From an uncultured virus (IMG/VR IMGVR_UViG_3300037524_001600) (Duplodnaviria; Heunggongvirae; Uroviricota; Caudoviricetes): DNA of 20,000 nucleotides. Where the stretch lies: the IMG/VR virus record IMGVR_UViG_3300037524_001600, one strand, 5' to 3'. Made by a program: the position numbers and the translations under genes. The notes below the pieces were generated by a model, which saw nothing but the letters and a program-made list of their open reading frames with translations, was not told the DNA's origin and made no database searches. This document shows, piece by piece, positions 391 to 20,000 of this stretch. How positions within the stretch are numbered: position 1 is the first letter of the stretch; every line of letters begins with the position of its first letter.

Positions 391-1056
391 TCATGTGGGC
401 GCACGCCTTAGCTGCCCGGCGGCGGCGCGTCGTAGTACTTCGTCCTGCGGTAGAGCGAATAGCGAAGAGCTGGATCCGGACGTATCGGGCGGCAAAGAGT
501 CCCCGGCCGAGCCCGTTCCGGTAGATGTTTTGGATTTGAACAGAAAGGAGTTGTTCTCGTCCTCGGCGAAAGTCTTGATGAAGTCAGGCACGCTGACGCC
601 GGATTTGTGCACCCACTCGCCCTGCTCGTTCTTGACGAGTAATGCCGTTATCTCCTTGAAGGCCATGTCGAACGACCTCGCGTTTCTGAAGGGCAGAGCC
701 TGCATCGCGCCCTTCACGGTGATGTCCCGCGTAAGCTCGATGTTCCTCTGCTCCAGCTCCTGCCTTGCCGCGCGCTCGGCCGCCAGCTCCTGCTCGAAGG
801 CCTCGCGATGCTTCCCCTCATCTTTCAGCCGCTGGACCTCGGCCGCGCGCAGATCCGCCTCGTACTTGGCCAGCTTCTTGATGGCCTCGTCCCGGGCTGC
901 GTACGCCTTGTCCAGATTCGCCTTTATCGGCGCCAGCTGCGCTTCCACGAGTTTCTGGAGGCGATCCTGCGAAGGGTCGCCTCCGGTATTCTCGCTCGAG
1001 CTCTCAGCGGACGATTCCGCCGCCGATTCTTCCGGTTTGCTCTCTGTATCGCTCAT
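391..1056 (-). CDS. Head scaffolding protein (221 aa)
   Basis: Start moved from 1119 to ATG 1056 (MSDTESKPEE), which follows GAGGAA. Acidic low-complexity N-terminus, long coiled coil and G/S-rich C-terminal linker (FLFKSKTSTGTGSAG); lies between the MuF gene and the capsid gene. Confidence 0.8.
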   Translation of the reverse strand: MSDTESKPEESAAESSAESSSENTGGDPSQDRLQKLVEAQLAPIKANLDKAYAARDEAIKKLAKYEADLRAAEVQRLKDEGKHREAFEQELAAERAARQELEQRNIELTRDITVKGAMQALPFRNARSFDMAFKEITALLVKNEQGEWVHKSGVSVPDFIKTFAEDENNSFLFKSKTSTGTGSAGDSLPPDTSGSSSSLFALPQDEVLRRAAAGQLRRAPT

Positions 1057-1068
1057 CTGTATTCCTCT

Positions 1069-1129
1069 GAGTACAACTCGATGTGACCGACGGCACAGCC
1101 GCGGCCGGCTTGTTTCCAAGGCACAGTCT
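1069..1129. repeat. Three mini-hairpins sharing an ACA/TGT triloop in the scaffold leader
   Basis: GAGT-ACA-ACTC (1069-1079), CGGC-ACA-GCCG (1091-1101), AGGC-ACA-GTCT (1119-1129, one imperfect pair). Confidence 0.45.
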
Positions 1130-4100: not shown

Positions 4101-5835
4101 TCGCCAGGATATTCCCGAGAAATCCGTCGTGCAGCTCCTGCAGGGAGGTCGCGCCGAGCACCGGATCTACGTACGCGTCCAGCTGCAGCTTGCGCAGCAC
4201 GTCCGAGTCCTTGCGTATCTGCGTCTCGATATAGTCCGACACGTTGGTCACGTCGAACTTCATCTGCGCGTTGGAGGCGGCCTTGAAGCTGACCCAGGGC
4301 TCCGGGTTCCGCCGGTACCTGGAGAACAGTATGCGCAGATTCTCCGCCACCACCGCTCTCTCGTTGACGCCCATGCGGTCCTCCAGGGCGGCCACGGTCT
4401 TCCCGATGAACTCCGCGTCCCGCGGGAGCAGGTCGGCGCTGTCCCCGACGCGCCTCATGGCGGACTCCAGAACCTCCGGTTTCGGCTGGTACACCCGCAC
4501 GTCGTCGTACCTGCGCGTGAACGGGTTGAACACCGTCTGATCCTCTCGCGGAGGCGACGCCAGCACCCGGTTCTTGGTGGCCCTCTTTACGTTGAGCAGC
4601 AGTCCCCTGTAGTTGGTCAGGGACAGATTACCGTCCAGGTCGCCTGACTGCAGCAGGTAGTAGTCCACGAGGGTGCGGGCCAGCCTGTCGTCCGAGATGA
4701 AGTCGTCCGGGGAGGAGGCGCCCAGCTGCATCGCGTCTAGACGCGCCTTGGCGGCGGCGAATCTGCGCGTGTCTCCGGGCACCAGGTATCCGGAGTCGGT
4801 CAACGCCCTGAGCTCCTTTATGCCCAGAGAGTTGCCCTCGTCATTGGTGAATTTGGACAGGTGCAGCTGCCCGCTCCTGAACAGGGATACCTTCTCGTAC
4901 TCCCCGAGGTGCCTCAGCTGAACCTCGCGCGTCTGTCTGGATAGCCAGTCGTGGTAGCTTTCCCGCATCGGTGTCTGGCCGTCGTAGTAGGCCATCTGCT
5001 GCCGCGTCAGGCCCCTAACGTTGTTCCGGCGCACCTGCGCCACGCCCTCCAGAGACGCTATGTCCGCCCAAGACTTGAACACCGGGACGGTGGTGGACCG
5101 GCAGTTGTAGTGAGCCGGCGGCAGGTGCTCCGTGTCCTCCGGGGGATACACGGTGCCGTCCCTGTGAGCGCACAGCGGGGTGGTCCTGGAGTCCAGTATG
5201 GCCACGTATTGCCACCCCCGTATGGCCCTGGCGTTGGCGGCGTACACGGCGTGATCCGCCTGGGCCCTGACGCTCGTGACGGCCGTGACCACCAGGGCCC
5301 TGGAATGCATGCGTGTTATCTTGTGCACGTTGCCGCGCCTGACCTCTCTGGCCATCTCCTCCATGCTCAGGCCCTCGGCCATCCCGCGGCGTATCAGCGC
5401 CTCTATCCTCTGACGCTCCGAGATGCTGACGCCCGCCCACCCGGCGGCCAGCGTCCTGTCCGAGTACAGCGGCCTCTGCAGGACTATCTCCTCGGACACG
5501 CGGCGCTCCGGGCGAGCCGTCCGCCAGATGCGGCCGACCGCGGCCTCCACGGTCTGGTACGCGTAGGAAAGCTGGTCGGAGGCCAGGTCCAGCAACGAGC
5601 GCCTGGTGACCGAGTACACCTCTCGGTACGTGCCCCTCAGCTCCCGGTCCACGGCCTCTCTGAGCCGCTCCAGCCCGCGCTGGGAGCGTTCCGCCTCCCG
5701 CACGAGGCGCTCCAGGCGCACAGCGTGGCCGTCCACAAGCAATTCCACCTTCCCGGCGACCCGCCTCTCGTACAGGCGGACCATCGCCGCGCGGTCCACG
5801 GCTCTGTCGAACACCGCCGTGTTGGCGTTGGTCAT
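1174..5835 (-). CDS. MuF/SPP1 gp7-like minor head protein fused to a T7-type single-subunit DNA-dependent RNA polymerase (1553 aa)
   Basis: N-terminal MuF signature WQYVAILDSRTTPLCAHRDG...PPAHYNCRST (aa ~205-248). C-terminal RNAP motifs in T7 order: DHRARIY (D860), motif A EQDASSSGAQ (D1010), motif B RKAAKAQNMVTLYG (R1072-x3-K1076-x7-Y1084-G), NGNHSNDA (H1426), motif C TVHDAF (D1452). One uninterrupted ORF with an ATGA overlap on the portal stop. Confidence 0.92.
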   Translation of the reverse strand: MTNANTAVFDRAVDRAAMVRLYERRVAGKVELLVDGHAVRLERLVREAERSQRGLERLREAVDRELRGTYREVYSVTRRSLLDLASDQLSYAYQTVEAAVGRIWRTARPERRVSEEIVLQRPLYSDRTLAAGWAGVSISERQRIEALIRRGMAEGLSMEEMAREVRRGNVHKITRMHSRALVVTAVTSVRAQADHAVYAANARAIRGWQYVAILDSRTTPLCAHRDGTVYPPEDTEHLPPAHYNCRSTTVPVFKSWADIASLEGVAQVRRNNVRGLTRQQMAYYDGQTPMRESYHDWLSRQTREVQLRHLGEYEKVSLFRSGQLHLSKFTNDEGNSLGIKELRALTDSGYLVPGDTRRFAAAKARLDAMQLGASSPDDFISDDRLARTLVDYYLLQSGDLDGNLSLTNYRGLLLNVKRATKNRVLASPPREDQTVFNPFTRRYDDVRVYQPKPEVLESAMRRVGDSADLLPRDAEFIGKTVAALEDRMGVNERAVVAENLRILFSRYRRNPEPWVSFKAASNAQMKFDVTNVSDYIETQIRKDSDVLRKLQLDAYVDPVLGATSLQELHDGFLGNILAKNLWEDSTAPKIAREMRDIFDYKIPLKIRARLSERDLQQFYLRFAHRLSLADSPDRDSLAVSLGRDLYNMANLNGSRNQWFNLGLRLMEAKKMDKLFSLGTFGVQKRRMKSRMSGKYFGPYYDTLSYYVELRDKRLLEYAALSRRVELGLRVNIVDPKNRLIVRPGYKTYFMDRGVLGLEDTRIPIVSSSSFSEFPESAVDREMADALNWAARAEFRVDRDYYDFVRKLLYFRDDRGAAQRYEDLNTYRKYIASRGDSYERFKAMEWLVDGDKKFSSMPFLDHRARIYERGLVGPQAGETFRPFLNTAEAKAFSPRDFRNFQDQVGSFLGGLSDYFEGRHDSLTFTGRQKIAERWRPELVRLGNHMLRGKPNDIRAVLDSDLVARVDGEELGKFFRLAMETAKLDNFLRGDYTKGALETLSGYRTALALEQDASSSGAQIIALTTRNKQLAELSNVVPTSYKKRLYDEIAAATYNDPRFRRMNERLGLTEKDLRKAAKAQNMVTLYGAGERTGTLNVEGKLSKVLEKDTGTLVVKTSDRDTVLAEISARMARYEKLDPELYEELSQLRKNVKDIFDRGVSPGEDIMEELWFLDSKTRDLVDKMSSAYDRVVTPDDFKQIAAIMSEHLQEQVPVLKNFTRFLGRLAEEFLNEAKPSQAAFDWESIGKIAVLGTRKKGYVLPDRLSEMLGLKAGEPVSEKLLKRLAFWNPQGTLRDIVYGVELPETRRTGATYLKFDFPVPIPDFEKRALGREVGFDGVPVLYANKLPKSWTNVPWVNFDGKVLEQHFTQSFEERLNYRDEAGNWIKNILQVPQKTEATWWEQAINKSGKINDIADTTKARTAFAVNGNHSNDAVLVKRFHLWGRGSGVQTSTVHDAFFTNAADMIKARAALREIYARAMDRNVIRLTLDEMRARGLPKAKYDAYLEEAIELGLIPVPGKSRIGGKLMKDSDILTREDVLREIPDDFFENFGWYGVN

Positions 5836-7373
5836 CTAGCAGGCGGCTTCGTCTCGGCAGACAATTCTGCCGCGTAGTCCATCTCCCGCGCCCTCTTCTC
5901 CAGCAGAATGTCCATGTCCGCCTGGATCTCCTGCATGCCCTGCTTGTCGTCGTACTCCGAGGGCAGCATGTCGTTCTGCTTGAGCAGCTGCAGCCAGACA
6001 GAGCGCGGGATCTTGCCCGAGTCGTACCACTCGGTGGCCAGCCTCAGCCAGTCGGCGCCCAGTGGCGTCTGGTTGAAGTCCTCGGAGAGCGTGCATGACA
6101 CCTCGGCGGCCGGAAACTCGGTGCCGTACCGCCAGGTCAGCATGAGGGAGATTACCTGCGACATAACGGCGCCCACGCGCTCGTTCAGGGACCCCAGCTG
6201 GGCCGTCTGCGCCGCGTTGCGCAGGTGCAGGGCCACCCCGGACTGGTCCGTCTCCGGCGTGAGCATACGGACGCCCAGCTTCGCTATCTCCTCTATCGAG
6301 GATGCGATCGCCCTGTCCATGTCCTGCAGCGCGGCGGTGGGGGTCTCCAGCACGCTGGCCTTCCCGTCCGGCGGCAGCTTCAGCCACGTGCCCAGCCCGC
6401 TCTCCACTATCTCGTCGAATTTCTCGTCAGTGATGTCGGCGCAGATGACCGGGGTATAGGTGGCCGCCCCGTACAGCAGGTGATTCCTGCGGCTCATCTT
6501 GTTGTACAGGGCCACCTCCTTGTTGATAATCGGCATGAGGGCGGGCTCCCTGGTGGCGATGCTGCCGTTCAGCGGCCAGGCCGGGATGTACGGCAGCGGC
6601 GCGCCCTCCATCAGCGGGACAACCGTCTCCTGCAGCACGAAGCCGGATTCTCCGGAGGCATTCTCCTCGGCCTGCGACTCGGGCTTCCTGTAGACCCTGA
6701 CGCGGTACGCGCCCCCCGACACGTCGTGGACGCGGACGGTGTCCACGAACCGCGGGTGGAACTCGTCCGACGCTCGGTCCTCCACCAGCTCTCTCGTGAC
6801 CACCATCCCGAGAACCAGCCTGCCGGTCATGTCCTTGTTGATCCGCCAGTTTATCACTTTCTCGGCTTTCCACACCACCGGATACGGCCTGTACTGCCTG
6901 CGCTCGTCCCGCGACAGATCCTCGTCCTCCACCTGGGGATAATCCACGTAGACCCAGGCCCTACTGGTCTGGATTTCCTCCCAGAGGGCCTCGTCCATGA
7001 ACGCCGACAGGGTGCAGCCGTCCTGGCCGAATTCCTTGAGTATCCACTCGGAGGCGTCTTCCGGAACTGACTCCGGCAGCGCGACCACCGGCGGCTTCCT
7101 GAGCAGCCCGCCCACCACCATCTTGGCGAACTCCGCCGTTATGCCCGGCAGCTCCGCCTCCGACCTGTACCAGTTGTACTGCGACTGGCTCATGGTCGGG
7201 GAGAACGGGGTCAGCAGATTGCTGAACGTGAACGAATCCAGGATCGCGTCCAGGCTCTTCACCGTCTGCTCCCCGGCGCACAGCGCTCTGGACCTCTTCC
7301 ACAGCGGCACCCTGCGCTGGTACTCCACGCACGGCGTCGCGACGGTCTTCACAGCTCCGGGGGCGACCGTCAT
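5832..7373 (-). CDS. Portal protein (DUF4055/SPP1-like type, 513 aa)
   Basis: Size, position immediately before MuF-scaffold-MCP, and segments resembling this portal family (RAWVYVDYP, RPYPVVWKAEKVINWR, PLPYIPAWPLNG, QSGVALHLR). Confidence 0.85.
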   Translation of the reverse strand: MTVAPGAVKTVATPCVEYQRRVPLWKRSRALCAGEQTVKSLDAILDSFTFSNLLTPFSPTMSQSQYNWYRSEAELPGITAEFAKMVVGGLLRKPPVVALPESVPEDASEWILKEFGQDGCTLSAFMDEALWEEIQTSRAWVYVDYPQVEDEDLSRDERRQYRPYPVVWKAEKVINWRINKDMTGRLVLGMVVTRELVEDRASDEFHPRFVDTVRVHDVSGGAYRVRVYRKPESQAEENASGESGFVLQETVVPLMEGAPLPYIPAWPLNGSIATREPALMPIINKEVALYNKMSRRNHLLYGAATYTPVICADITDEKFDEIVESGLGTWLKLPPDGKASVLETPTAALQDMDRAIASSIEEIAKLGVRMLTPETDQSGVALHLRNAAQTAQLGSLNERVGAVMSQVISLMLTWRYGTEFPAAEVSCTLSEDFNQTPLGADWLRLATEWYDSGKIPRSVWLQLLKQNDMLPSEYDDKQGMQEIQADMDILLEKRAREMDYAAELSAETKPPAR

Positions 7374-7563: not shown

Positions 7564-9687
7564 TCACGTTACCACGAAATATCTGGCGCCAGCCACCCGC
7601 GCCGCGGAGGTCTGGAAGCCAGCGCCTGCGAAAAACTGCGCGGAGGCGTCCGATCCCGAGTAGGACTCCCCGGCCTGCGCCGCACCCATCCCGTACGAGA
7701 CAGACACCTCCGAGTGCAGAGAGGCCTGCAGAGACAGGCCGGCCCCGGCCCCGTGGGCGGAAGAGGCCGCGAGGACCGCCCCCGCCGAGTACAGATCAGC
7801 GGCGCCCGCGGCGTGATCCGACGCCGCGCTCGCCGCGGAGTCCGTCTGGGAGAAGAATCCCGCCCCCGCCCCCGCGGCCAGCGCGGCCGGGAGTGCGGAG
7901 GAGGCCTGATGCGAGTGCCCGGCACCGACACCGTGCCCCGACAGCACGGGATAGGACGCGGACGGCTGGAACAGCGCGCCGGCCCCCGCCGGGCTCAGGA
8001 GGGTTACAGGCAGGGAAAGATCGCCGATGCTGATGCCGCCGGCCCCGGCGCCGAAGGACACCGACACACCGTACGAAGACTGCGTCCCGAAGGAGACGGC
8101 CGCGCCGACCGACACGGCGTGCGCCGCTGTGGAGCCGGTGTCGCCGTCCCCCGAGTACCCCGCACCCGCCGCCGCGGAGCACACCTCGTGGTACACGGCC
8201 GCGGTTCCGGCCGAGTAGCCGGCGCCGACTCGCCAGTCCTGAGACAGCTCCTGCGCCGCCGCGGAGGAGTCCGAGATCCCGGCGGACGAAGAATGGCTGC
8301 CCAGCAGGACGGCGACAGACAACGGATCGAACCCCGCGCCTGTCCGGCCCTCCGAGGACGCGACCAGGACGGAGGATCCCTGCGCAGTGCCCCCCGCCCC
8401 GGCCGCCGCGGACAGCGTCGCGGCCCGAACCACGTAGGAATCCGCCTGGAACCCTGCGCCCGAGGACGAGGAAGCCTCCGCCAGCACGGACGCGACGGCG
8501 ACCGCATAGGAAGAGACGCCCGCCCCGTGCTCGGAGGTTTCCTCCGACAGAGAATACAGCAAGAACGCGGAGGATGCCCCGGCCTGGGCGCCCGTCTCGG
8601 ACAGCAGTACCGCTGCGGCGGAGGCCGCGTCGGAGGCGCCCGAGGAGCCGCCCGCATCGGCCCGAAGGGCGGACTGCGCCGATACCGAGTCGGAGGCGCC
8701 GAGGGATTCCTGACCGGATGCCGCCGCGACCGACAGCGCGGCGACGATGTCCGAGGCCCCGGAAGATTCCTCCGCGGAGACGGAGAGCGCGGCGGAGGCC
8801 TGCGCCTGGGCTCCCGCCCCGGCCGCGGGCGCGTGCGTCCTGTTCTGGTCCGCGACCGCCTTGACGTCCAGGACCGCCCACGACACGCGGAGGTCCAGCG
8901 ACGCGCTCGGTATCACCGTACCGTCTGTAGACCCGGAGGCCGCCGCGCCGCCCGCATGGGCCGCGCCCAGCACCAGCGAGCCGGCGGCAGAGCCGGCCGG
9001 CGCGCCCCCGCTGCTGTGGTCGCCCGACAGAACGGGCGCCGCCGGCCTCACCGCGACGGTTATGGCGACCCACTCGTCCGAGGCCGAGATGGTGAACGAA
9101 TTGGGATTCTCGCTGGAGACCGCGTTGTCGCGCGTCGCCATGCCGAATCCGACGCCGTTTGTCGCGTTACTGACCGTCGTGGAATATTGATTATCCGCGT
9201 AACTGAGCGGCCACCCCGAGACTGTGCGGTTCGCGTCGCAGCCGAACGAGGCGATCCAGAGCGTGTCCTCTGTGACCCAGTTGGCCGGATCCAGCACGGG
9301 CGGATTGGGCGTGGTGCTGGTGCCGACGGCCACGTCGCCGACGACGGCGTCGGCCCAGGCGGATCCGCCGTACCACCCCGCCGCCGGGATCCGCGCGGTT
9401 CGGAATATCGCGGCCTCCGACGTGCCGGCGGTGACGTTGACCGTGGAGCCCTCGCTGCCGGTCGCCTTCTTCCCGTAGACTACGTGCAGGACCGCCGAGT
9501 TGTTCGTGCCGGCGATCAGGGTGTACTCGGTCGTCAGCGTCCCGGACAGCGCCGGATTGCCGTCGAACGTGCAGAACACCAGCAGCAGGTCGCCGGACGA
9601 GATCCCGGCGGGCAGCTGTATCGTGTGACTGGTACCGCTGGTCGCGTCGGTGCCGCTCGTGCTGGCGGCGATTGTAGGGAAGGCCAT
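7564..9687 (-). CDS. Putative virion fibre/decoration protein (707 aa): beta-rich N-terminal domain plus long Ala/Ser/Gly-rich quasi-repeat region
   Basis: Start moved to ATG 9687 (MAFPTIAAST), TGATG overlap with the upstream stop. N-terminus SHTIQLPAGISSGDLLLVF; C-terminal ~480 aa of recurring GAGAG/GASD units. Confidence 0.65.
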   Translation of the reverse strand: MAFPTIAASTSGTDATSGTSHTIQLPAGISSGDLLLVFCTFDGNPALSGTLTTEYTLIAGTNNSAVLHVVYGKKATGSEGSTVNVTAGTSEAAIFRTARIPAAGWYGGSAWADAVVGDVAVGTSTTPNPPVLDPANWVTEDTLWIASFGCDANRTVSGWPLSYADNQYSTTVSNATNGVGFGMATRDNAVSSENPNSFTISASDEWVAITVAVRPAAPVLSGDHSSGGAPAGSAAGSLVLGAAHAGGAAASGSTDGTVIPSASLDLRVSWAVLDVKAVADQNRTHAPAAGAGAQAQASAALSVSAEESSGASDIVAALSVAAASGQESLGASDSVSAQSALRADAGGSSGASDAASAAAVLLSETGAQAGASSAFLLYSLSEETSEHGAGVSSYAVAVASVLAEASSSSGAGFQADSYVVRAATLSAAAGAGGTAQGSSVLVASSEGRTGAGFDPLSVAVLLGSHSSSAGISDSSAAAQELSQDWRVGAGYSAGTAAVYHEVCSAAAGAGYSGDGDTGSTAAHAVSVGAAVSFGTQSSYGVSVSFGAGAGGISIGDLSLPVTLLSPAGAGALFQPSASYPVLSGHGVGAGHSHQASSALPAALAAGAGAGFFSQTDSAASAASDHAAGAADLYSAGAVLAASSAHGAGAGLSLQASLHSEVSVSYGMGAAQAGESYSGSDASAQFFAGAGFQTSAARVAGARYFVVT

Positions 9688-11895: not shown

Positions 11896-12401
11896 CAGAC
11901 CGACTCCTCGACCAGCATCGCCGCGTACCTATCGTGCGCCGGGGCGATGCGAGAAGACACGAGCGCGTTCCATTGCGTGGTATTTAGACTTTTGCCAAAG
12001 TGAAGGTTATAGCTGGCGCGCACGGCGTCGCTGGTCAGCCAGCCGTGGAGCACTTCCTCGTACAGCCACCACAGAAGCCGGGCGTACACCAGCTTGTCGC
12101 CGCTCCACGTTGCATCGACGGCGCCCCAAAATGCGTCGGCGAACTCGGCGTTGGTCTGATGCTGCAGCGAGATCGGGCCGGGATCGGAGTAGATCGTCCT
12201 GCGCTGCTCATCGCGCTTTAGCGCGTTGTTCAGATAGGGCACCCGCGCCTCCATGGCCGCGGAATGGTCCGCCTCGGCCGCGGCCAAGTATCGATGCTCG
12301 ATCGCACCTCCGGTCGTCAGCGCGTGCGTCTCAAGTACGTACACCCGGCCGTCTGATTGGGTGTGCGGGTCAACAGACAGCACACTTGAGGCTACCGGCA
12401 T
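11895..12401 (-). CDS. Hypothetical protein (168 aa), possibly a partner or chaperone of the adjacent fibre
   Basis: Tiles the minus-strand operon; stop overlaps the next start; normal globular composition. Confidence 0.65.
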   Translation of the reverse strand: MPVASSVLSVDPHTQSDGRVYVLETHALTTGGAIEHRYLAAAEADHSAAMEARVPYLNNALKRDEQRRTIYSDPGPISLQHQTNAEFADAFWGAVDATWSGDKLVYARLLWWLYEEVLHGWLTSDAVRASYNLHFGKSLNTTQWNALVSSRIAPAHDRYAAMLVEESV

Positions 12402-12416
12402 ATTCGGCCCCCGATG

Positions 12417-13034
12417 TCAGCCCACGTCCAGAGACAGCGACACGCTAACATTGAGCTGGTCGCCGTCGCCGGAGATCACCTTGTCGGACGAAAACGCCGC
12501 GACGGAGTAGATCAGGCCCGTCGTCGCGTACCGGGTGCCCGCCGAGGCCACGAAGCTGCCCTTCAGCGTGCCGGCCTCCGTGAAGACGAAGTTGACGGCG
12601 GAGGAGGAGTCCAGCACCACGGGATCGGCGTTCGTGGGCTCCCCGAACGAGACCGTGCCGCGGGCGGTGCCGGCCGGGGTGTCGTAGTTGGGAGCCTGCG
12701 ACGCCCCGGCCTCGCGCCAGCCGTTGCTGCCGGCGATCTGCGCCGCGGTGTCGGTCTTGGCTATCGCCGTGTAGCTCACCGACGATATCAGGCCTATATA
12801 CCACGTGGTCACCTGCGTCGCGCCGTCGAAGCCGACGTCCAGCAGGTGCTGGCCGCCCTCCTGCGTGACGAGGTTCCCGACGGTCCAGTCGTCCAGCAGG
12901 ATCCCCCGCCTGTCGAGGTGCTTGAAGCGGAAGGAGAAGTGCGGCGCGCGGGCGCGTCCCGGGGCGCGATGCCTTTCGGCCAGTACTAGGCCCGCCCTCG
13001 CGGTCATGCCCGCTCTGAGCTTTCTCATGCGCAC
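12417..13034 (-). CDS. Virion structural protein, paralogue B (about 205 aa; start may be ATG 13028)
   Basis: Shares W-x3-N-x-VT-x-EG-x2-LLDV-x-FD-x-ATQ-x-T-x-WY-x-GLISS-x-SYT and APNYDTPAGT with 13039..13656. Confidence 0.7.
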   Translation of the reverse strand: MRMRKLRAGMTARAGLVLAERHRAPGRARAPHFSFRFKHLDRRGILLDDWTVGNLVTQEGGQHLLDVGFDGATQVTTWYIGLISSVSYTAIAKTDTAAQIAGSNGWREAGASQAPNYDTPAGTARGTVSFGEPTNADPVVLDSSSAVNFVFTEAGTLKGSFVASAGTRYATTGLIYSVAAFSSDKVISGDGDQLNVSVSLSLDVG

Positions 13035-13038
13035 CCCG

Positions 13039-13656
13039 TCACGGCGTGTAGACCAGATCGAGGGACACGGTGACCGTGACCTTCAGCTGGTCGTTGTCCA
13101 CCACGGCCTTGTCTCCCGAGAACAGCGCGGCGGAATAGAGCGGTGCGGTCGTGGAGAGCCGGGTCGCCCCGGCCGCGATGAATGCGCCCTTCACGGTCCC
13201 GGTGTTGGAGAACGTGATGTCCACGGTGGCGGACGACGACAGGCTGACGGGGTCAGTGCCGGTCGGCTCCGCGAACGAGATCTGCGCCCGATCGGTGCCC
13301 GCCGGCGTGTCGTAGTTCGGCGCGTACGTGGCGGAGCACTCGGCCCAGCCGTTCCCCGCGGCCGACAGGCTCGCCGCCGTGTTGCCGATGGCGGGAGGGG
13401 TCGTGTAGGAGGCCGAGGAGATCAGCCCCAGGTACCACGACGTGATCTGCGTCGCGGCGTCGAAGTACACGTCGAGCAGAGAGTAGGCCCCCTCCGTGGT
13501 TACGATGTTCTCGGCGGACCATCGGTCTATCTCCAGCCCGCCGCGCAGGTGCACGAACTCGTAGCGGAACCTGGGCACCGCGCTGAACGCGCCGCTCCCG
13601 GCTCCGCGGACCGCCCGCGCCTCGGCGGTCATGCCGATCTTTCCGTTGTCTTTCAA
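13039..13656 (-). CDS. Virion structural protein, paralogue A (205 aa)
   Basis: TTG start after GGGAG; beta-rich; tandem paralogue of 12417..13034. Confidence 0.7.
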   Translation of the reverse strand: MKDNGKIGMTAEARAVRGAGSGAFSAVPRFRYEFVHLRGGLEIDRWSAENIVTTEGAYSLLDVYFDAATQITSWYLGLISSASYTTPPAIGNTAASLSAAGNGWAECSATYAPNYDTPAGTDRAQISFAEPTGTDPVSLSSSATVDITFSNTGTVKGAFIAAGATRLSTTAPLYSAALFSGDKAVVDNDQLKVTVTVSLDLVYTP

Positions 13657-13678
13657 TTCTAGCTCCCGGTTGTTGTAG

Positions 13679-13852
13679 CTAACGCGATTTCTCGCCGCAC
13701 TGCTGGACCCTGATCTCCAGCTCCACGATTCTGTCTGCCATGCGCAGACACCACCTCTGCATGGCGGCTATCTCCCGCCTCATAAGAGCGTTCTCCCCGG
13801 ACAGTGCCGAGATTCTCTCGCGCAGCAGGGGCTCGTCGTCCCGCCCCGTCAT
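13679..13852 (-). CDS. Small coiled-coil hypothetical protein (57 aa)
   Basis: Not in the ORF track. ATGA overlap with the upstream stop; MTGRDDEPLLRERISALSGENALMRREIAAMQRWCLRMADRIVELEIRVQQCGEKSR*. Confidence 0.6.
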   Translation of the reverse strand: MTGRDDEPLLRERISALSGENALMRREIAAMQRWCLRMADRIVELEIRVQQCGEKSR

Positions 13853-14082
13853 CCGGGATCCCCGGGCGCCAGCTCCCGCGTCTCCGCGGAGGCGACCACG
13901 TCGCAGTGCACCACCCTGCCCACCGTCTTGATCACCGCGACCATCGGGCCGCGCTCGTCTACCTGAAAGATCTCCAGGGAAGTGATCCCGCGGATCTCCT
14001 CCCCGGTCTCCGCGTCCGTAACCACCGTGCGGGCGCCGGCCGGACGCTCCTCGTGGACCACCCGGACGCGGCGCACCGCCAT
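13849..14082 (-). CDS. Small hypothetical protein (77 aa)
   Basis: Start moved from 14256 to ATG 14082 (MAVRRVRVVHEE), TGATG overlap with the upstream stop. Confidence 0.6.
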   Translation of the reverse strand: MAVRRVRVVHEERPAGARTVVTDAETGEEIRGITSLEIFQVDERGPMVAVIKTVGRVVHCDVVASAETRELAPGDPG

Positions 14083-14483
14083 CAGTCGCCCCAGGGCCGG
14101 CTCTTGCCGCGCTGCCTGTTGGTCTCGGCCGCCGTGACCCTGGCGTCGAGCCACTGCACGCCCTTCCGCAGGATCTGGTTGACCCCGGCGAACGTGTGGT
14201 GCTCGGTCAGCACGGCCGGCTGCCCGTTCCAGCTCCACTCGATCGAGTAGGGGCACCTGGCCCCGCAGGTCTCGGGGTTCTGGCGGCGGCTGGCGTAATC
14301 CAGCGTCTCGAAGCCCGAGCGCTCAAGGGCCCGCGCCTGCGCCTCGGTCATGCCGAAGAACTGGCTCTGCTGGCAGTACACCTTGGAGCCCTGGTAAAGC
14401 ACGCACAGCTGCGTGTTCACGTCGACGGCCAGGGCGGGCCCCGAAAGCAGCGCCGCGAGCAGCAGCGCGAAAATCCTCTTCAT
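14082..14483 (-). CDS. Secreted/periplasmic hypothetical protein (133 aa)
   Basis: Sec-type signal peptide MKRIFALLLAALLSGPALA with an A-x-A site; four Cys in the mature part; SD AAGGAG; ATGA overlap with the upstream gene. Confidence 0.75.
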   Translation of the reverse strand: MKRIFALLLAALLSGPALAVDVNTQLCVLYQGSKVYCQQSQFFGMTEAQARALERSGFETLDYASRRQNPETCGARCPYSIEWSWNGQPAVLTEHHTFAGVNQILRKGVQWLDARVTAAETNRQRGKSRPWGD

Positions 14484-14719
14484 TTCTGCTCCTTTATCAG
14501 TGGGTTCTCGGGGAGCCTGAGCCCCCTCGCGCCCCCGCCCATCATTCCCGCGAGCTTGGACTCGAGGACGGCCTGGGTGGGGTCTAGATCGTTCATTCCC
14601 TTGAGCTGCATCGCCAGGGCCGCCAGCTGCAGCACCTGCGTGGCCTGCTGGTTCGCCACGGCGTTAAGGGCCATGAGGTCCCGGACGAATTTGTCCGTGT
14701 CGCTTGATTCTACGGGCAT
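14480..14719 (-). CDS. Reb-like small helical protein 2 (79 aa)
   Basis: SD GGGAGG; contains ALNAVANQQ, resembling the NAVxxQQ motif of Reb proteins; aligns without gaps to 14778..15095 (12/37 identities). Confidence 0.55.
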   Translation of the reverse strand: MPVESSDTDKFVRDLMALNAVANQQATQVLQLAALAMQLKGMNDLDPTQAVLESKLAGMMGGGARGLRLPENPLIKEQK

Positions 14720-14743
14720 CTCTCAGCCTCCCGGCGCGGGCGC

Positions 14744-14771
14744 GGCGGGGCCCCGCGGAGGCGGCCCCGCC
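14744..14771 (-). promoter_or_regulatory. GC-rich stem-loop between the two Reb-like genes (no U-tract)
   Basis: GGCGGGGCC (14744-14752) and GGCCCCGCC (14763-14771) form a perfect 9-bp inverted repeat with a 10-nt loop, 6 nt after the stop of 14778..15095. Confidence 0.6.
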
Positions 14772-14777
14772 ACTCCG

Positions 14778-15095
14778 TCAGACCGTCACCGGCGGGGTGA
14801 CACCGGCGGCCTTGCCGGCCTGCTGCGACGACGCGATGGCCGACGCCAGGGAGGCGAAGACCTGCGCGAGATCGTTGCCCGTCAGGACCTTGCCGACCGA
14901 CACAGCCTCGGTGGCGTCCACCTCGACCAAGGACTTCACGACCGCGCCGACCGAGGCCTCGCGGATGCTGTTCATCGCCCGCTGGTGCGCCACGGCGTCG
15001 TTGTAGGCCAGGCCCATCGCGAACGCGGCGGCGTCCCCGAGGTTCTTGGTGTTGACGTTGCTGACGCTGTCGATGATGCCTTCGTTTGCTGCCAT
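14778..15095 (-). CDS. RebB-family-like (R-body) protein 1 (105 aa)
   Basis: ANEGIIDSVSNVNTKNLGDAAAFAMGLAY matches the Reb N-terminal pattern as I recall it (N-x2-I-x-D-[SA]-V-x3-N-x-K-x-L-G-x-A-x-A-x-A-M-G-x2-Y); small, Ala-rich; SD GAGGAG. Confidence 0.7.
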   Translation of the reverse strand: MAANEGIIDSVSNVNTKNLGDAAAFAMGLAYNDAVAHQRAMNSIREASVGAVVKSLVEVDATEAVSVGKVLTGNDLAQVFASLASAIASSQQAGKAAGVTPPVTV

Positions 15096-15179
15096 CAGAT
15101 AACTCCTCTAGAGTTGCTACGACTGCGCGCCTGGATCGTACCGGGCGCTATGCGCAGGGACGCGCATCCTGTGCCGGGC

Positions 15180-15608
15180 TCAGAAGTCCAGAGCCACGGA
15201 GAAAGAAGAGACCTGTCCCGAGAGGGACTCCAGCTCGACCCACACCCAACTGCCCGCGGGCACGGCGGCCTGCGCCAGCGCGGCAGAGTCGCCGGAGGTC
15301 TGGCTGGTGACGACCGCCGAGGACACGTGGGACAGCGGGGACGGGTCGGAGCGACTGGCCGCGCTCCTGACGGAGTACGTCACGGACGGCGCCGATCCGG
15401 ACACGACGGCCCGCACGGCGGAGAGCACGATCTGCCCGGACGCGTAGAAGACGGTGACGGAGTCGGGGGCGAACGGGGACGCGACGGTGAGGGCCTTCGT
15501 CCCCAGCGGCCTCTCCGCCTTGCCCTCGTTGAGATTCACGACGTTGGCGTCCGCCTCGGCATTGGTCAGCGGGGAGCCCTTCCCCGCCCTCGTGACGATG
15601 TCTACCAC
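15180..15608 (-). CDS. Short fibre-like virion protein (142 aa)
   Basis: N-terminus IVTRAGKGSPLTNAEADANVVNLN resembles a common phage fibre attachment segment; beta-rich C-terminus. Confidence 0.6.
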   Translation of the reverse strand: MVDIVTRAGKGSPLTNAEADANVVNLNEGKAERPLGTKALTVASPFAPDSVTVFYASGQIVLSAVRAVVSGSAPSVTYSVRSAASRSDPSPLSHVSSAVVTSQTSGDSAALAQAAVPAGSWVWVELESLSGQVSSFSVALDF

Positions 15609-15612
15609 GGCG

Positions 15613-16074
15613 TCACGCGGGCGCGAAGGCGACCTTCCAGGTGACCGTCAGGGAGTCGCCGGCGCCCTTGTTTATGACGCCGAAGGTGGACCTGCACATC
15701 ATGGCGCCGGAGGAGCCAGAGTTGAACAGCCCGGCTTCCCTCAGCGCGCCGGTGCACACGCCCGCTGGGAACACGGCGACGTGCTGCACGGAGTCGTTGG
15801 CCTTACTGGTGGTCACCCGGGACAGGCTCTGCAGGGCCACGCGGCCGGTCTCGGCCAGCAGCGCCGTCTGGTCCTGGTCGGCCGCGGTTTCGTCCGAGCC
15901 CAGGGCCATGTGCGACACCACCGACTGCGAGGCATCCACCAGCCTGCTGGTCACCAGAGCCAGGCCCGACGCGACCACGAGGTTGGCGGCCCGCCTCCCC
16001 GCGATCACCCTGCCTGCGGGGTCCCTTAGGACCAGCACCAGATCGCCCCTGGCGCCCACGCGATTCACGATCAT
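15613..16074 (-). CDS. Virion structural protein, tail-collar/fibre-attachment-like (153 aa)
   Basis: NLVVASGL...SHMALGSD...QTALLAE...GALREAGLFN...LTVTWKV pattern typical of phage tail-collar-like proteins; SD GAGGTG. Confidence 0.65.
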   Translation of the reverse strand: MIVNRVGARGDLVLVLRDPAGRVIAGRRAANLVVASGLALVTSRLVDASQSVVSHMALGSDETAADQDQTALLAETGRVALQSLSRVTTSKANDSVQHVAVFPAGVCTGALREAGLFNSGSSGAMMCRSTFGVINKGAGDSLTVTWKVAFAPA

Positions 16075-16083
16075 CAGCTCACC

Positions 16084-16488
16084 TCAGAAGGAGACGGATA
16101 TTCCGTAGTAGCCCGGCTCGACGTAGTCCCAGGCGACGTAGTTCTGCATCTGCAGCAGGCCCGGGTCGGAGGCCGCCGACAGGTCCGACCGCGCCGCGGA
16201 CATGGACCACGACAGCTGATCCAGGGCGCCGCCGACATCGGTGCTCTGCAGCTCCCCGCCGAGCTGCGGCAGGATCTGGTCCGAGAGCAGCGCGCCGTCC
16301 GGAAGGTACAGGAATCTTGCGGGATCGAACCCGCGCCTGCCCGGCCTGAAGTCGGCAGAGACGGAGGCGGGGGAGGGAGAGCCCGGGGCGGCGTACTCCG
16401 GCGAGGAGGGTCCGTCGTAGTCCTGCCCCCCGGGCCTCCCGTAAGACGGCGTGCCGGGCCCGCCGTAGACAACGTCCAGGTCGTCCAC
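16084..16488 (-). CDS. Hypothetical acidic, Pro/Gly-rich protein, probably structural (134 aa)
   Basis: GTG start 1 nt after the upstream stop; C-terminal aromatic motif NYVAWDYVEPGYYG. Confidence 0.55.
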   Translation of the reverse strand: MDDLDVVYGGPGTPSYGRPGGQDYDGPSSPEYAAPGSPSPASVSADFRPGRRGFDPARFLYLPDGALLSDQILPQLGGELQSTDVGGALDQLSWSMSAARSDLSAASDPGLLQMQNYVAWDYVEPGYYGISVSF

Positions 16489-16489
16489 G

Positions 16490-17080
16490 TCAGGGCACCT
16501 GGTCGGCCGGGCTGAATAACAATTCCACGACGCCCCTGACCGGCTTCCAGGTGCGCCTGTACACGGCGTCCTCCGGCTCGGTGACGCGCAGCTCGAAGAA
16601 GCCGTATACGTTGACGTCCACCGTGGGCTGCTGGTCGTAGCCGGAGCCGAGGGTGCCCGGGAACTGCACGTACACGGTCCTGGGATCGTGCTCCTCCCAG
16701 AGCGGGTCGTCCGGCGGGGGCGTCGCGGACACCCTGGCCACCCCGGAGGACAGCTTGTAGGTGACCCCGCCGTGCGTCACGGTCTCCTCCCTGTTGTACG
16801 CCTGCGCGGCGTCCCAGGCGCCCCGGGGCGTGGGGACCCTGACGCCCAGCGCCACTTTGGATGGGGACACGGACCTGACGGAGGACGGCGGCTCCTCCTG
16901 GCCGGGAACGTTCTCCGCCTCCAGCACGACCGCCTCGTACTCGTAGCCGAGAGACGCGTCGTCCAGGAACTCGAGCGTAACGGGGAACTCCAGCTGCTCC
17001 CCCATCACTATGGACCACAGGACCGCGCCCGCGTCCTTGATGAGGTCAGACCTCAGGTCCCGTATCAGCGCCCTGGCCAT
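16490..17080 (-). CDS. Putative virion structural protein with an inserted CBM5/12-like module (196 aa)
   Basis: SD GGAG; beta-rich; internal RGAWDAAQAYNREETVTHGGVTYK...PPPDDPLW resembles small carbohydrate-binding modules. Confidence 0.6.
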   Translation of the reverse strand: MARALIRDLRSDLIKDAGAVLWSIVMGEQLEFPVTLEFLDDASLGYEYEAVVLEAENVPGQEEPPSSVRSVSPSKVALGVRVPTPRGAWDAAQAYNREETVTHGGVTYKLSSGVARVSATPPPDDPLWEEHDPRTVYVQFPGTLGSGYDQQPTVDVNVYGFFELRVTEPEDAVYRRTWKPVRGVVELLFSPADQVP

Positions 17081-17096
17081 GGCTCCGCACCGTATC

Positions 17097-17450
17097 TCAT
17101 TTCTTCCTTCCCTCCGCCTCGGCGTGCGACCTGATCGCGAGGTCCAGCCTGTCCAGCTGGGACTCGAGCTCCCTGAATCGCACGTCCAGTATCTCCTTTT
17201 GCGCCAGCCAGTCCGCCCTGCGGAACCGGTCGTCGGTCCTGACCATCACCTGGCTCTCCAGGGCCGCCACCCGGCGGACGAACTCCTCCATCCGGTACTC
17301 CGCCCTGCGCGTGTAGTTGTGCACGCTGAATAGCAGGAAGATGCCCACGGACAGCAGCGTGACCGTGAAGGCGCGCAGTATGAACAGCTCATCGAGAAGA
17401 AGTGTGCGAAATTTTCTCGACAAGTCTCTCCAGCCGCTGGAATCTGTCAT
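17097..17450 (-). CDS. Single-TM plus coiled-coil membrane protein, paralogue 2 (117 aa); possibly lysis-related
   Basis: Strong SD AAGGAGGTGA before ATG 17450; hydrophobic span LFILRAFTVTLLSVGIFLLFSV; heptad-like C-terminus. Confidence 0.7.
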   Translation of the reverse strand: MTDSSGWRDLSRKFRTLLLDELFILRAFTVTLLSVGIFLLFSVHNYTRRAEYRMEEFVRRVAALESQVMVRTDDRFRRADWLAQKEILDVRFRELESQLDRLDLAIRSHAEAEGRKK

Positions 17451-17676
17451 CTATCACCTCCTTCTCTCTCCGCCACTCCGACACCGAGAAGTGTGTGCTG
17501 GTGGAGGCGTTCACTTGCGACTGCAGCGTGAGGAGCCTCTCCTCGAATCTGCCGACTTTGTCCCTGAGATCCACGAGCGCGTTCCCGTTCCACAGGAGCA
17601 GGGCCAGCAGCACGGCCGCGATGACGGTCTGTATGTGCTGCTCGAGAGCCGACCGCGGCCTCTCCTGCTCGTCCAT
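17389..17676 (-). CDS. Single-TM plus coiled-coil membrane protein, paralogue 1 (about 95 aa); possibly holin- or spanin-like
   Basis: SD GAGGAGG then ATG 17676 (GTG 17682 is an alternative); TM span IQTVIAAVLLALLLW; coiled-coil C-terminus. Confidence 0.7.
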   Translation of the reverse strand: MDEQERPRSALEQHIQTVIAAVLLALLLWNGNALVDLRDKVGRFEERLLTLQSQVNASTSTHFSVSEWRREKEVIDDRFQRLERLVEKISHTSSR

Positions 17677-17688
17677 CGACACCTCCTC

Positions 17689-19041
17689 TCAGAAACCGAA
17701 GCCCCGGGAAGCCACCTTCTGCCCCCTGCGTATCGGAAAGAGGTACTCCACGGCGTAGCGGACGCCGTCCGAGAAATGCTCCACACCCTCCTTCTTGTCT
17801 AGGGTGGCCGTGTCCGGGTTATTCTCAGACCAGGAGGTGCGCTCCAGGGACGCTATCAGGCCGGTGCACCTGGGATGCACGTACATCCTTACGTCCCCGG
17901 CCGCCGTCTTCAGCAGGCGGTTCACCGCGGCGACGCTGTCCACGATCGGAGGGGCCGACTGCCTGGACAGGCACTGTATTCCGTGCGATTCCAAGATGCT
18001 GAAGTCCGTCTGGCCCACCGGGGCGGACGTCTTCCTGGCCTTTCCGGACGGGTCCGGGTAGCCGAAGATCCTGTGACCGCGGTACCTCTCCTTCAGGGCC
18101 ACGGCCAGCGTCTCGGTGTCCGGATGGCCCTTGAACTCCTCCAGCCAGTGCGCCTGCTTGCCCCTGAGGGCGAATGCGGACGAGCACTGCAGGCCCACGT
18201 TGAAGTCTATGCAGACGTGGACGTCCTCGCCGTCCCTGGCCCTGTCGCCCGAGGGCGGCCTGAAGTCCTCCAGGTCCCTGCGGACGTGCACGGACCTGTC
18301 GAAGCAGTAGAAGACGTTATTGCCGGAGCCCTTGAAGCTGGCCTCGTACTCTCGGGCGAACTCCAGCGGGTCCACCGTGTGACGTATCCGATCGATCTCC
18401 TCCGCGTCCAGGAACGGGGAGGACCTGTAGTCGTACCTGTAGGACCGCCACTCGGGATCGATCTCCCTGAAATTGTACATGTCGTACAGGAAGTCGTAGC
18501 CCTTCGGGGTGGACACCGCAAGGGCTCTGCCCGGGGACTTCGCGCCGAGCTCCGCGGCCCTCTTCCTGGACCACCTAGTCAGCACGGTGGGCTGCAGTAT
18601 GCCCTCCCACGCCTCCCTCGGGGTGAGCCCGCGCCTCCACGAGGCCAGCTCGTCCAGGGCCAGGAAGTAGGCGCCCTTGCCGCGCATCCTCTCGACGGCC
18701 TCGTAGGACACGAGCCTTAGCTCCACGTTCCTGCCGAACATGAACCTGCCGTCGTCCCTAGAGGCCTTGGCCAGGCGTCCCTCCATGCCCAGCTCGTACA
18801 TGATCAGCGGCCAGTAGATGTCCGTGACCTGGTCGTACGTCGGCGCGACGATGTAGGCGTACTTGTTGGGCACGCTCCAGTCCAGCTCCAGCAGCTCGTA
18901 GCACGCCGCCACGGCGCAGGTGGCCGTCAGGTACGACTTGCCCCAGCCCCTGGAGCAGACCACCACGGAGAATCTCGCCTTCCTGTCCACGAACAGGTCC
19001 GAGAACACCTCGGACTGCCCGGGGTGCAGGTCTATGCTCAC
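17689..19041 (-). CDS. terL: Terminase large subunit (450 aa)
   Basis: Start moved to GTG 19041 (GTGA overlap with the upstream stop). LHPGQ motif, Walker A VVCSRGWGKS, Walker B FLALDE, coupling motif STPKG, RNase H-like nuclease motifs CIDFN and HFSDGVRY. Confidence 0.95.
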   Translation of the reverse strand: MSIDLHPGQSEVFSDLFVDRKARFSVVVCSRGWGKSYLTATCAVAACYELLELDWSVPNKYAYIVAPTYDQVTDIYWPLIMYELGMEGRLAKASRDDGRFMFGRNVELRLVSYEAVERMRGKGAYFLALDELASWRRGLTPREAWEGILQPTVLTRWSRKRAAELGAKSPGRALAVSTPKGYDFLYDMYNFREIDPEWRSYRYDYRSSPFLDAEEIDRIRHTVDPLEFAREYEASFKGSGNNVFYCFDRSVHVRRDLEDFRPPSGDRARDGEDVHVCIDFNVGLQCSSAFALRGKQAHWLEEFKGHPDTETLAVALKERYRGHRIFGYPDPSGKARKTSAPVGQTDFSILESHGIQCLSRQSAPPIVDSVAAVNRLLKTAAGDVRMYVHPRCTGLIASLERTSWSENNPDTATLDKKEGVEHFSDGVRYAVEYLFPIRRGQKVASRGFGF

Positions 19042-19466
19042 GGGCGGGAGGCCAGGTTTATCACCAGCGGCGCCGCGTTGCTCTCCACATTGACCGTCTC
19101 GGGCACGCGCCCGTAGCCGTACCGCAGCAGGGACTCCCCGACGCGGATCATCTGCTCCCTGACCGCCGCGTGCGCCTGCGCGCTGTACCTGCGGGCGTTC
19201 CCGTTGCCGTCCAGGGGCGTGATATCGCCGCGCTGCCACCTCTCGTAGCGCTCGTTGTCGGCCCTAAGCTTCTCGTACAGGTTGACGAGCTCTTTTATGG
19301 GGTCGTATCTGAGCTCCGACAGCCTGGCCACGGACCTGAGACCTCCTCTGGGGAATCGCTCCTGCCTCACCGGAGAATACTTTTCCGGCATCCTCGGCTC
19401 GTCCGGGAAATCCTTGCAAATCAGCGGGATGCCGGCTTCCCCTTGCGTTTCATGGCGGTCCGTCAT
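19038..19466 (-). CDS. terS: Probable terminase small subunit (142 aa)
   Basis: Immediately upstream of and coupled to terL; helical core ending in a beta-like tail (APLVINL); SD GAGGGG. Mainly a positional call. Confidence 0.65.
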   Translation of the reverse strand: MTDRHETQGEAGIPLICKDFPDEPRMPEKYSPVRQERFPRGGLRSVARLSELRYDPIKELVNLYEKLRADNERYERWQRGDITPLDGNGNARRYSAQAHAAVREQMIRVGESLLRYGYGRVPETVNVESNAAPLVINLASRP

Positions 19467-19972: not shown

Positions 19973-20000
19973 AAAAAAAAAAAAAAGGACCCCTCCCCGC
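19973..20000 (-). terminator. Probable intrinsic terminator (3' arm and U-tract; 5' arm outside the window)
   Basis: Minus strand GCGGGGAGGGGTCC followed by 14 T (A-run at 19973-19986 on the plus strand). Confidence 0.55.

Follow-up and report, generated by a model that had tools for sequence, protein, structure and literature searches.

A phage-borne cassette of Reb-like genes and a tail-bearing Reb subfamily in tailed phages and prophages

A DNA stretch of 20,000 nucleotides (nt) from an uncultured tailed virus, hereafter the window, carries two adjacent genes for small proteins that resemble the Reb proteins of R-bodies, and this locus was the subject of a computational analysis. The window corresponds to bases 13036-33035 of the linear 36,389-base IMG/VR virus record IMGVR_UViG_3300037524_001600, whose completeness is ~52% according to CheckV, and a test of G+C content by codon position places all its credible genes on the minus strand. 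The names RebL and RebS are given here to the proteins of 105 and 79 amino acids (aa), respectively. The open reading frames (ORFs) of the locus, in the order of transcription, are the following.

14778..15095, minus strand: RebL, 105 aa in the ORF list, beginning MAANEGIIDSVSNVNTKNLGDAAAFAMGLAY
14720..14777, minus strand: spacer between RebL and RebS, 58 nt, G+C-rich, with a 13-bp stem and a fold of -43.2 kcal/mol
14480..14719, minus strand: RebS, 79 aa in the ORF list, containing ALNAVANQQ
14082..14483, minus strand: protein of 133 aa with an N-terminal signal peptide, its start overlapping the RebS stop in the ATGA of 14480-14483
13849..14082, minus strand: ORF of 77 aa, its ATG (14080-14082) overlapping the stop of the 133-aa gene
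13679..13852, minus strand: coiled-coil ORF of 57 aa, joined by a further ATGA overlap, with weak leucine-zipper-type Pfam matches below the cut-offs

Both Reb-like ORFs exist as the original prediction had quoted them, the start of RebL and the ALNAVANQQ segment of RebS included, and both are real genes under purifying selection. The G+C content at third codon positions (GC3) is 0.94 for RebL and 0.85 for RebS, similar to that of neighbouring genes, and Shine-Dalgarno sequences (GGAG and GGGAGG) are located 7-9 nt upstream of the respective ATG codons. By using the orthologues in two further IMG/VR contigs, L002 and L003, ratios of nonsynonymous to synonymous substitution (dN/dS) of about 0.33-0.45 were obtained for RebL and 0.23-0.56 for RebS. 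The ungapped alignment of the two proteins reported earlier, with 12 of 37 positions identical, agrees with a recount by eye, and BLASTP returned 15 identical residues out of 50, also ungapped (E 3e-5, as a single comparison). Comparison of the two families (5 vs 11 sequences) with hhalign gave an E value of 9.4e-5 and a probability of 58.9%. Against a hidden Markov model (HMM) of 90 diverse RebL relatives, RebS scored 26.0 bits, the best of 2000 RebS shuffles reaching 11.2, and its score was 26.1 bits once the five close relatives of the window itself had been removed from the model. The similarity between the two proteins exceeds chance, and it is this profile evidence that settles their paralogy.

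RebL scored 32.4 bits against the Pfam family RebB (PF11747), for which the gathering cut-off is 24 (E 9.7e-8), with residues 7-61 covering positions 1-66 of the 68 in the profile. In a six-frame search of its own record it was recovered at 30.4 bits, and a precomputed PF11747 match exists for 9 of the 12 close homologues that were found. An identical protein is encoded on a contig of 80 kb. BLASTP with RebB of Caedibacter taeniospiralis, a proven R-body protein, revealed 33% identity (E 3e-10) over nearly the full length, with one gap of 11 residues. With the profile test passed and Caedibacter RebB aligned almost end to end, the Reb assignment first made for the 105-aa protein is borne out. 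AlphaFold2 models RebL as all-helical (helices 5-57, 61-72 and 74-99), with a predicted local distance difference test (pLDDT) score of 75.8, in agreement with Reb proteins as characterized in PMC13430693; neither RebL nor RebS contains Cys or Trp, and both have the small helical build of the 7-15 kDa Reb class. A Foldseek comparison of the RebL model with BFVD and PDB yielded nothing at E <= 0.001, and a sequence search of PDB with the single RebL and with the 90-sequence profile found no Reb structure (0 matches for the profile). In PHROGs, RebL obtained solely a weak match to the unannotated phrog_32040 (E 6.2e-5).

According to the same source, the diagnostic motifs of primary Reb proteins are QITD with flanking prolines, KXXXD/E, NAV and QQ(Q), of which NAV and QQ(Q) are themselves said not to be absolutely conserved (PMC13430693). 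The KXXXD/E motif is found in RebL as K17-N-L-G-D21. At residues 6-9 RebL reads G-I-I-D, no proline occurs before residue 101, and in domain 3 it carries D33-A-V and H37-Q, so that the exact NAV and QQ letters are not matched. Because KXXXD is kept but IID, DAV, HQ and the absence of an early proline depart from the printed pattern, RebL is best described as an atypical Pfam RebB member. In comparison with Caedibacter RebB, it shares the N-terminal motif DSVxxxNTKxLG, is 11 residues shorter between its first and central segments, and ends in a tail, QQxGKxAGVTPPVTV, whose pattern QQxxKxAxxTPP is absent from the Caedibacter Reb proteins.

RebS, in turn, is read as a diverged and N-terminally shortened Reb paralogue that is filed outside Pfam membership. 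Its match to PF11747 amounts to 14.4 bits (E 0.041), covers profile positions 35-65 only and does not reach the cut-off of 24, and all 5 members of the RebS family match RebB weakly, with a best E value of 0.024. Since its start aligns to residue 21 of RebL in BLASTP, RebS is devoid of the N-terminal domain, and with it of the regions corresponding to QITD and KXXXD/E; the central NAV..QQ segment and the helix that follows are kept. Thus, N19-A-V (19-21) and Q24-Q (24-25) are present and the other primary Reb motifs are not. The description of the locus as holding two Reb-like genes accordingly stands for RebL, which exceeds the PF11747 cut-off, but for RebS it fails at that cut-off and stands through the profile evidence of paralogy. 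An identification of RebS as the orthologue of Caedibacter RebD was rejected (E 3.4). By the descriptions given in PMC13430693 only, RebS fits the secondary Reb group S1, which keeps only the domain-3 motifs, and RebL loosely fits group S2, which is near the primary group in domains 1 and 3 and has an extended proline-rich C-terminus.

The pair does not stand alone. The ATGA start-stop overlaps join RebS to the 133-aa gene, the 77-aa ORF and the 57-aa ORF, and RebL lies 58 nt upstream. Adjacent paralogues are characteristic of Reb loci, and the RebL/RebS pair is present in the same form in L002 and L003, whose RebL orthologues have 78% and 75% identity, respectively. In L002, the DNA match to the window (blastn) extends over 15116-14103 with 67% identity, from 21 nt before the RebL start, across RebS and into the 133-aa gene, where the contig ends. 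L003 encodes RebL, RebS and then, in its last 112 bases, the start of the 133-aa protein, in the order seen in the window. The original prediction had delimited the feature as 14480..15095; this holds for the pair but is too narrow, as the unit conserved in L002 and L003 includes 14082-14483. The gene upstream of the cassette encodes a phrog_399 structural protein in L002 and the portal in L003, and the proteins flanking the cassette in the window are unmatched in both contigs save for one weak portal-portal match in L003 (23%, E 6e-6). RebL, RebS and the exported protein thus form a compact, translationally coupled cassette that moves between phage backbones, and its recurrence between unrelated flanks marks it as a mobile accessory module (moron), in contrast to a core virion gene.

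The 133-aa protein has a hydrophobic N-terminus (maximal Kyte-Doolittle score 2.17) and is represented by only 4 clusters among 5.8 billion proteins. Its AlphaFold2 model has a pLDDT of 79.9 and a predicted template modelling (pTM) score of 0.70, and no convincing fold match was obtained, Foldseek returning only TEAD-type rows at E >= 0.06, VIA-align Z values of at most 5.0, and the Atlas nothing usable as a lead. One of its clusters derives from a contig of 8225 bases, and the contig of a RebL homologue also measures 8225 bases. The 77-aa and 57-aa ORFs may or may not be part of the cassette, as both L002 and L003 stop short of the 77-aa position; a longer reading of the 77-aa ORF, with 135 aa, has no Pfam or PHROG match. 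The fold of the RebL-RebS spacer is no better than that of shuffled sequences (z -0.54), and the stem therefore offers no evidence of function; likewise, the hairpins on either side of RebL do not exceed shuffled sequences in stability.

A profile built from RebL relatives recovered 305 cluster representatives at E <= 1e-3, 112 of them at E <= 1e-10, among 1.84 billion. Most representatives of this subfamily have about 100-120 aa and are matched by the profile from end to end. They have in common a C-terminal tail with the consensus QQxxKxAQTTPPxT, and TPP occurs within the last 25 residues in 115 of 150 among the matches listed. In an alignment of 90 sequences, the N-terminal N-x-K and the C-terminal tail are the most conserved residues, K17, K95 and P102 being invariant. 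The KXXXD/E motif is present in 72 of these 90 members, exact QITD in 2, and the looser [IV]x[DE][STA][VIL] in 55. Because 36 of the 90 match PF11747 at E <= 0.01 (best 5.6e-25), the subfamily grades into canonical Reb, and an HMM of 85 members from which the relatives of the window had been excluded scored Caedibacter RebB at 44.8, RebA at 30.8 and RebD at 24.6 bits.

Further members were sought with two degenerate DNA patterns for the tail. In IMG/VR, the matches to the two patterns were, as judged by HMM, Reb-like ORFs without exception (12/12 and 20/20). In GTDB genomes, 6 of the 10 matches to the first pattern were Reb-like ORFs, and 4 of those lie amid phage genes. One Nitrosomonas assembly encodes, in order, a major tail protein, the Reb protein, a tail chaperone and the tape measure; a second has an endolysin, a membrane protein, a 126-aa ORF and Reb; in a third, the Reb gene comes after a head protein. 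In a Competibacteraceae assembly the order is integrase, 80-aa ORF, Reb and a protease-capsid fusion. A Reb-like locus occurs only once in each of the four prophage-bearing genomes. All subfamily contexts that were retrieved with recognisable neighbouring genes are phage or prophage. In a wider sample of 400 genomes of the same class there was a match in 3, one of which (G068) is a four-gene tandem cluster of the cellular type. A quick tree (141 rows, 109 columns, midpoint root), in which branch support was given only by the Shimodaira-Hasegawa-like approximate likelihood ratio test (SH-aLRT), united 7 of the 8 sampled cellular Rebs in a single clade (SH-aLRT 100) that sits, by way of weakly supported forks, within tail-bearing sequences; this suggests a relation between cellular and tail-bearing Rebs but not its direction. 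Searching 50,697 deposited phage genomes by tblastn with three family members produced no match. A related-locus search of metagenome contigs found no relative, and since the run on viral contigs was also blank despite the presence of L002 and L003, that search carries little weight.

The position of the gene was surveyed in 38 loci, 34 from IMG/VR and 4 from GTDB. It has the terminase or portal gene as its immediate neighbour in L003, L007, L013, L036, L039, L041, L050, L051, L054 and L055, and because the proteins of L041, L050, L051, L054 and L055 are near-identical, these ten cases represent six lineages. In L008, L016 and L018, which form one lineage, it separates the major tail protein gene from those of the tail assembly chaperones; the L018 ORF is located at 7704-8039, and the lineage, whose insertion point is unusual, includes a 1.3-Mb Nitrosomonas contig. 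The gene follows a tail fibre gene in L015 and its relative L005, and it stands beside endolysins or holin-like genes in L022, L044 and L053. A further group has replication, recombination, nuclease or integrase neighbours: HNH and ribonucleotide reductase in L010, a regulator and an endonuclease in L006, Erf in L040, exonuclease VIII and ParB in L045, a methyltransferase in L046 and an integrase in L024, with L011 also belonging here. Another 8 loci have no annotated neighbour. Two tandem copies are present in L005, L010, L015 and L043. Small companions recur, with a 71-80-aa protein upstream in L006 and L024 and a 125-128-aa protein downstream in L005 and L015, and many neighbouring genes have membrane, lipoprotein or secreted products (the window, L002, L003, L006, L011, L024 and L025). 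So variable a position marks an accessory gene that inserts where modules meet and not a fixed component of the virion. The uncharacterised phrog_644 is encoded no more than about 3.6 kb from the Reb-like gene at three loci (L009:3691-4131, L012:435-914 and L036:3987-4403) and directly precedes it in L036 only, so it might be a partner or a part of a shared backbone.

The cassette of the window had been placed in a phage morphogenesis region, a claim that is well founded in view of the following genes.

17689-19239, minus strand: large terminase subunit (phrog_2, E 3.2e-30)
17389-17682 and 17097-17450, minus strand: two overlapping small paralogues of 97 and 117 aa, just after the terminase
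15613-16074, 15180-15608, 13039-13656 and 12417-13034, minus strand: small fibre-like proteins, in an array around the Reb cassette
5832-7373, minus strand: portal (phrog_145, E 3.2e-65; DUF4055)
1174-5835, minus strand: Mu-F head morphogenesis protein of 1553 aa (PF04233 in the N-terminal part; phrog_241, E 4.9e-64)
391-1119, minus strand: scaffold (PHROGs)

The portal has 43-46% identity to its counterparts in EBPR siphovirus 1, Pelagibacter phage Kolga and DSS3_VP1, and the source, a siphovirus-like phage, is related to the first two and to the Naomviridae. In DSS3_VP1, a member of the Naomviridae, the portal, a giant head-morphogenesis protein, a gene in the scaffold position and the major head protein follow each other as in the window, and this matching order supports the morphogenesis setting together with the PHROG matches. 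Between terminase and portal, DSS3_VP1 carries fibre and lysis genes, and an ordinary endolysin is among those of the matching region. The fibre-like array of the window looks like a modular host-recognition region in that same interval. One of its proteins matches phrog_5417 and, weakly, the N-terminus of a tail-collar fibre; another has a GKGSPLTNAEADANV-type N-terminus, and two are phrog_8123 paralogues of 205 aa.

Contigs from metatranscriptome runs labelled as wetland hint weakly at natural transcription of the cassette. RebL was covered without mismatch in the 4 of 4 runs examined, the contigs spanning 14776-15001 (X5), 14921-15152 (X6), 14815-15137 (X7) and 14776-15148 (X8), and RebS was covered in two of them (X5 14489-14674; X6 14475-14727, with one differing letter). 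The four runs have separate study codes but possibly stem from one campaign, and they were found by using this very stretch. The contigs of two runs end at 14776, in the RebL-RebS spacer, which is no more than a weak hint.

What these genes do can be proposed from their family and setting. In three sources, all characterised members of the Reb family are structural subunits of R-bodies (PMC13689365, PMC13430693, PMC13733733). Because the cassette shares the strand of the late genes and lies among them, it is probably expressed with them. RebL, with RebS possibly contributing as a minor or modifying subunit, would most likely self-assemble in the cytoplasm while the cell is infected or induced, and the product would be a helical polymer of the Reb type, an R-body-like ribbon. 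Self-assembly of RebL into such a polymer late in infection is put forward tentatively, at somewhat less than even confidence; it is suggested by the function of every characterised family member and by the most conserved positions, which sit at both ends of the helix bundle. Speculatively, when a protist swallows the cell, the polymer would extend on acidification and damage the membrane of the food vacuole, whereby progeny phage or sister lysogens might be protected, as with Shiga toxin. Shiga toxin released on prophage induction has been reported to act against grazers. A far-reaching extension, that tailed phages break protist food vacuoles with pH-triggered R-bodies of their own, that R-bodies are at root a phage weapon, and that the phage-like particles were true vectors by which phages scattered reb genes, must be regarded as unlikely.

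Several observations weigh against the proposed polymer. An exported third protein in the cassette is a misfit for a cytoplasmic ribbon. RebL departs from the printed Reb motifs (GIID, DAV, HQ, no early proline) and lacks ~11 residues between domains 1 and 3. Most phage loci are single-copy, against the several paralogues of cellular R-body loci, and the adjacency to terminase or portal in six independent lineages could mean a role in head assembly. A scan of 12000-17600 retrieved 0 sigma-70-like promoters and 1 terminator-like site, which is on the wrong strand and no more than shuffles yield. Contigs from RNA libraries, in which DNA may be present, can neither prove nor rank transcription. 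Finally, the record holds only about half a genome.

Among the other explanations, the one closest in probability would keep the Reb fold and dispense with the large polymer: small soluble helical proteins with a part in anti-defence, superinfection exclusion or the takeover of the host, possibly alongside the exported partner. A moron-like distribution at module boundaries and beside homing-type endonucleases would suit such proteins, as would the frequent membrane, lipoprotein or secreted neighbours, the single copy at most loci and the motif departures of RebL. However, the characterised family members are all R-body subunits (PMC13689365, PMC13430693), and the conserved N-x-K and tail look more like assembly contacts than like a binding surface shaped by an arms race; the explanation is rated as somewhat unlikely. 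Alternatively, the Reb-like proteins could be components of the virion or of its assembly, for instance head-completion, portal-associated or fibre-associated proteins whose helical self-association builds the particle. The large terminase or portal stands next to the gene in ten loci, the major tail protein and chaperones enclose it in L008, L016 and L018, a tail-fibre gene precedes it in L015, and in the window it lies amid fibre-like genes (phrog_5417 and two phrog_8123), on the late strand and with a strong ribosome-binding site; this bias to the start of the late operon keeps a structural role alive. Against it, five of the ten terminase or portal cases count as one lineage, the position is not conserved (L006, L010, L022, L024, L040, L044, L045, L046 and L053), and movement of the cassette between unrelated backbones would be unexpected of a particle part adapted to its partners. 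Moreover, since the deposited phage genomes contained no tblastn match to the three queries, Reb is not a common structural gene, and a virion role is considered unlikely.

A Reb-type polymer might also act at lysis, the ribbon extending when holins collapse the membrane potential and the pH of the cytoplasm, and tearing the envelope from inside. R-bodies can reportedly rupture E. coli spheroplasts on a pH shift, as is said to have been found by Polka and Silver in 2016. Endolysin or holin-like genes neighbour the Reb-like gene in L022, L044 and L053, small membrane proteins do so in L024 and L025, and Pfam and PHROGs searches of the window recognised neither an endolysin nor a spanin. On the other hand, a recognised endolysin is adjacent in only 3 of the 38 surveyed loci, the lysis genes may lie elsewhere given that the record is incomplete, and the related DSS3_VP1 has its ordinary endolysin in the matching region, so that action at lysis seems improbable. 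Least credible by far, to the point of being negligible, is a chance or compositional resemblance of alanine-rich helices, or ORFs that are not genes. The proteins are indeed short, with a high content of A, V, L and Q, and RebS is below the Pfam cut-off, but this reading is contradicted by the score of RebL over a curated cut-off, by the alignment with Caedibacter RebB, including the common N-terminal motif (I/V)xDSVxxxNxKxLG(D/E), and by the RebS shuffle test (26.0 bits vs at most 11.2). Purifying selection, a codon bias like that of the neighbours and conservation across many contigs, in both genes, speak against it as well.

The closest known system is the set of kappa R-body genes on the Caedibacter taeniospiralis plasmid pKAP298. 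Its RebB has 105 aa, exactly as RebL, and its RebD 81 aa compared with 79 in RebS; both loci consist of small all-helical adjacent paralogues on a mobile element. Here the genes are borne by a tailed phage that has terminase, portal and capsid genes, whereas those of Caedibacter lie on a plasmid that has a few phage-like genes. Chromosomal reb clusters, such as rebP1/rebP2 of Pseudomonas aeruginosa PA14 and the cluster of G068, belong to the same family and comprise tandem paralogues, the products of which are, according to the 2026 preprint PMC13733733, the major R-body subunits. The four G068 paralogues have canonical QITD and QQQ motifs, 88-94 aa and model matches from positions 1-63 to 1-84, with no tail. 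According to that preprint, cellular clusters come with regulators of their own (PMC13733733); unlike these, the phage cassette has no recognised regulator. A looser parallel, in logic only, is offered by late-expressed lysogenic-conversion morons such as stx of Shiga-toxin phages: a tailed phage carries, on its late strand and next to structural or lysis genes, an accessory cassette whose product could act on eukaryotic grazers upon induction of the cell. The two are unrelated in sequence, and as a further difference neither a promoter nor a terminator belonging to the Reb cassette itself was found.

A link between R-bodies and phages has been an open question for fifty years. R-bodies are said to have been connected with phage-like particles by Preer in the 1970s. 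The sequence link was sought by earlier surveys and not found by them. Raymann et al. (2013) detected no Reb homologues in phage genomes and, at reb loci, nothing indicative of prophages, with a reservation for undersampling (PMC3583457). In Dorr et al. (2026), in Applied and Environmental Microbiology (AEM), the phage link is called tempting but without direct evidence (PMC13689365), and the BMC Genomics article by Dorr, Ghosh and Schweikert (2026) does not use the word "phage" in its main text (PMC13430693). Searches of the full-text literature, supplements and subscription papers aside, yielded no report of Reb homologues in phage genomes. Three papers were set aside, as they have R-body work in their reference lists only or use "killing trait" in another sense (PMC6775973, PMC11566119 and PMC10688885). 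What is new here is a phage-borne, tail-bearing Reb subfamily, previously unremarked, which is present in 34 contigs of IMG/VR as well as in prophages within assemblies of Nitrosomonas and Competibacteraceae, together with the three-gene cassette. It furnishes concrete sequences with which the building of R-bodies by phages, the transfer of reb genes by phages and interference with protist grazing can be tested. Should the proteins turn out to be soluble or parts of the virion, they would still constitute a new phage protein family with the Reb fold.

The finding may also bear on the candidate R-body toxins proposed in the 2026 preprint, namely the HNH endonuclease, GH24 lysozyme and holins located within 10 kb of rebP1 homologues (PMC13733733). 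Because the HNH, endolysin and holin-like neighbours of the Reb-like genes in L010, L022, L044 and L053 are ordinary phage genes, some of those toxin neighbourhoods may, by analogy, likewise consist of prophage genes.

Some further features of the record deserve mention. The last 15 bases of the window (19986-20000) show 8 mismatches to the record and the remainder none, which has no bearing on the finding. The ORFs of 168, 527, 211, 746 and 58 aa between the fibre-like array and the portal (12401-7375) have no Pfam or PHROG match. Plus-strand ORFs at the left end of the record, which had passed the GC3 filter, were rejected as the antisense of a 2999-aa ORF (L028 89-9088, minus strand), which is outside the window and occupies the left quarter of the record; from its position after the head and connector genes, this ORF is probably a giant tape measure. 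The paralogues of 97 and 117 aa each have one N-terminal membrane helix followed by a coiled coil, with no family match for either, and could be holin- or spanin-like lysis or membrane proteins; a CBM5/12-like protein is encoded after them in the order of transcription. The 1553-aa protein, whose gene comes directly after the portal as does the 1463-aa "head morphogenesis" gene of DSS3_VP1, also matches the T7-type single-subunit RNA polymerase (PF00940, 1401-1491; phrog_414, 996-1096), and it may be an RNA polymerase that is packaged in the virion and ejected.

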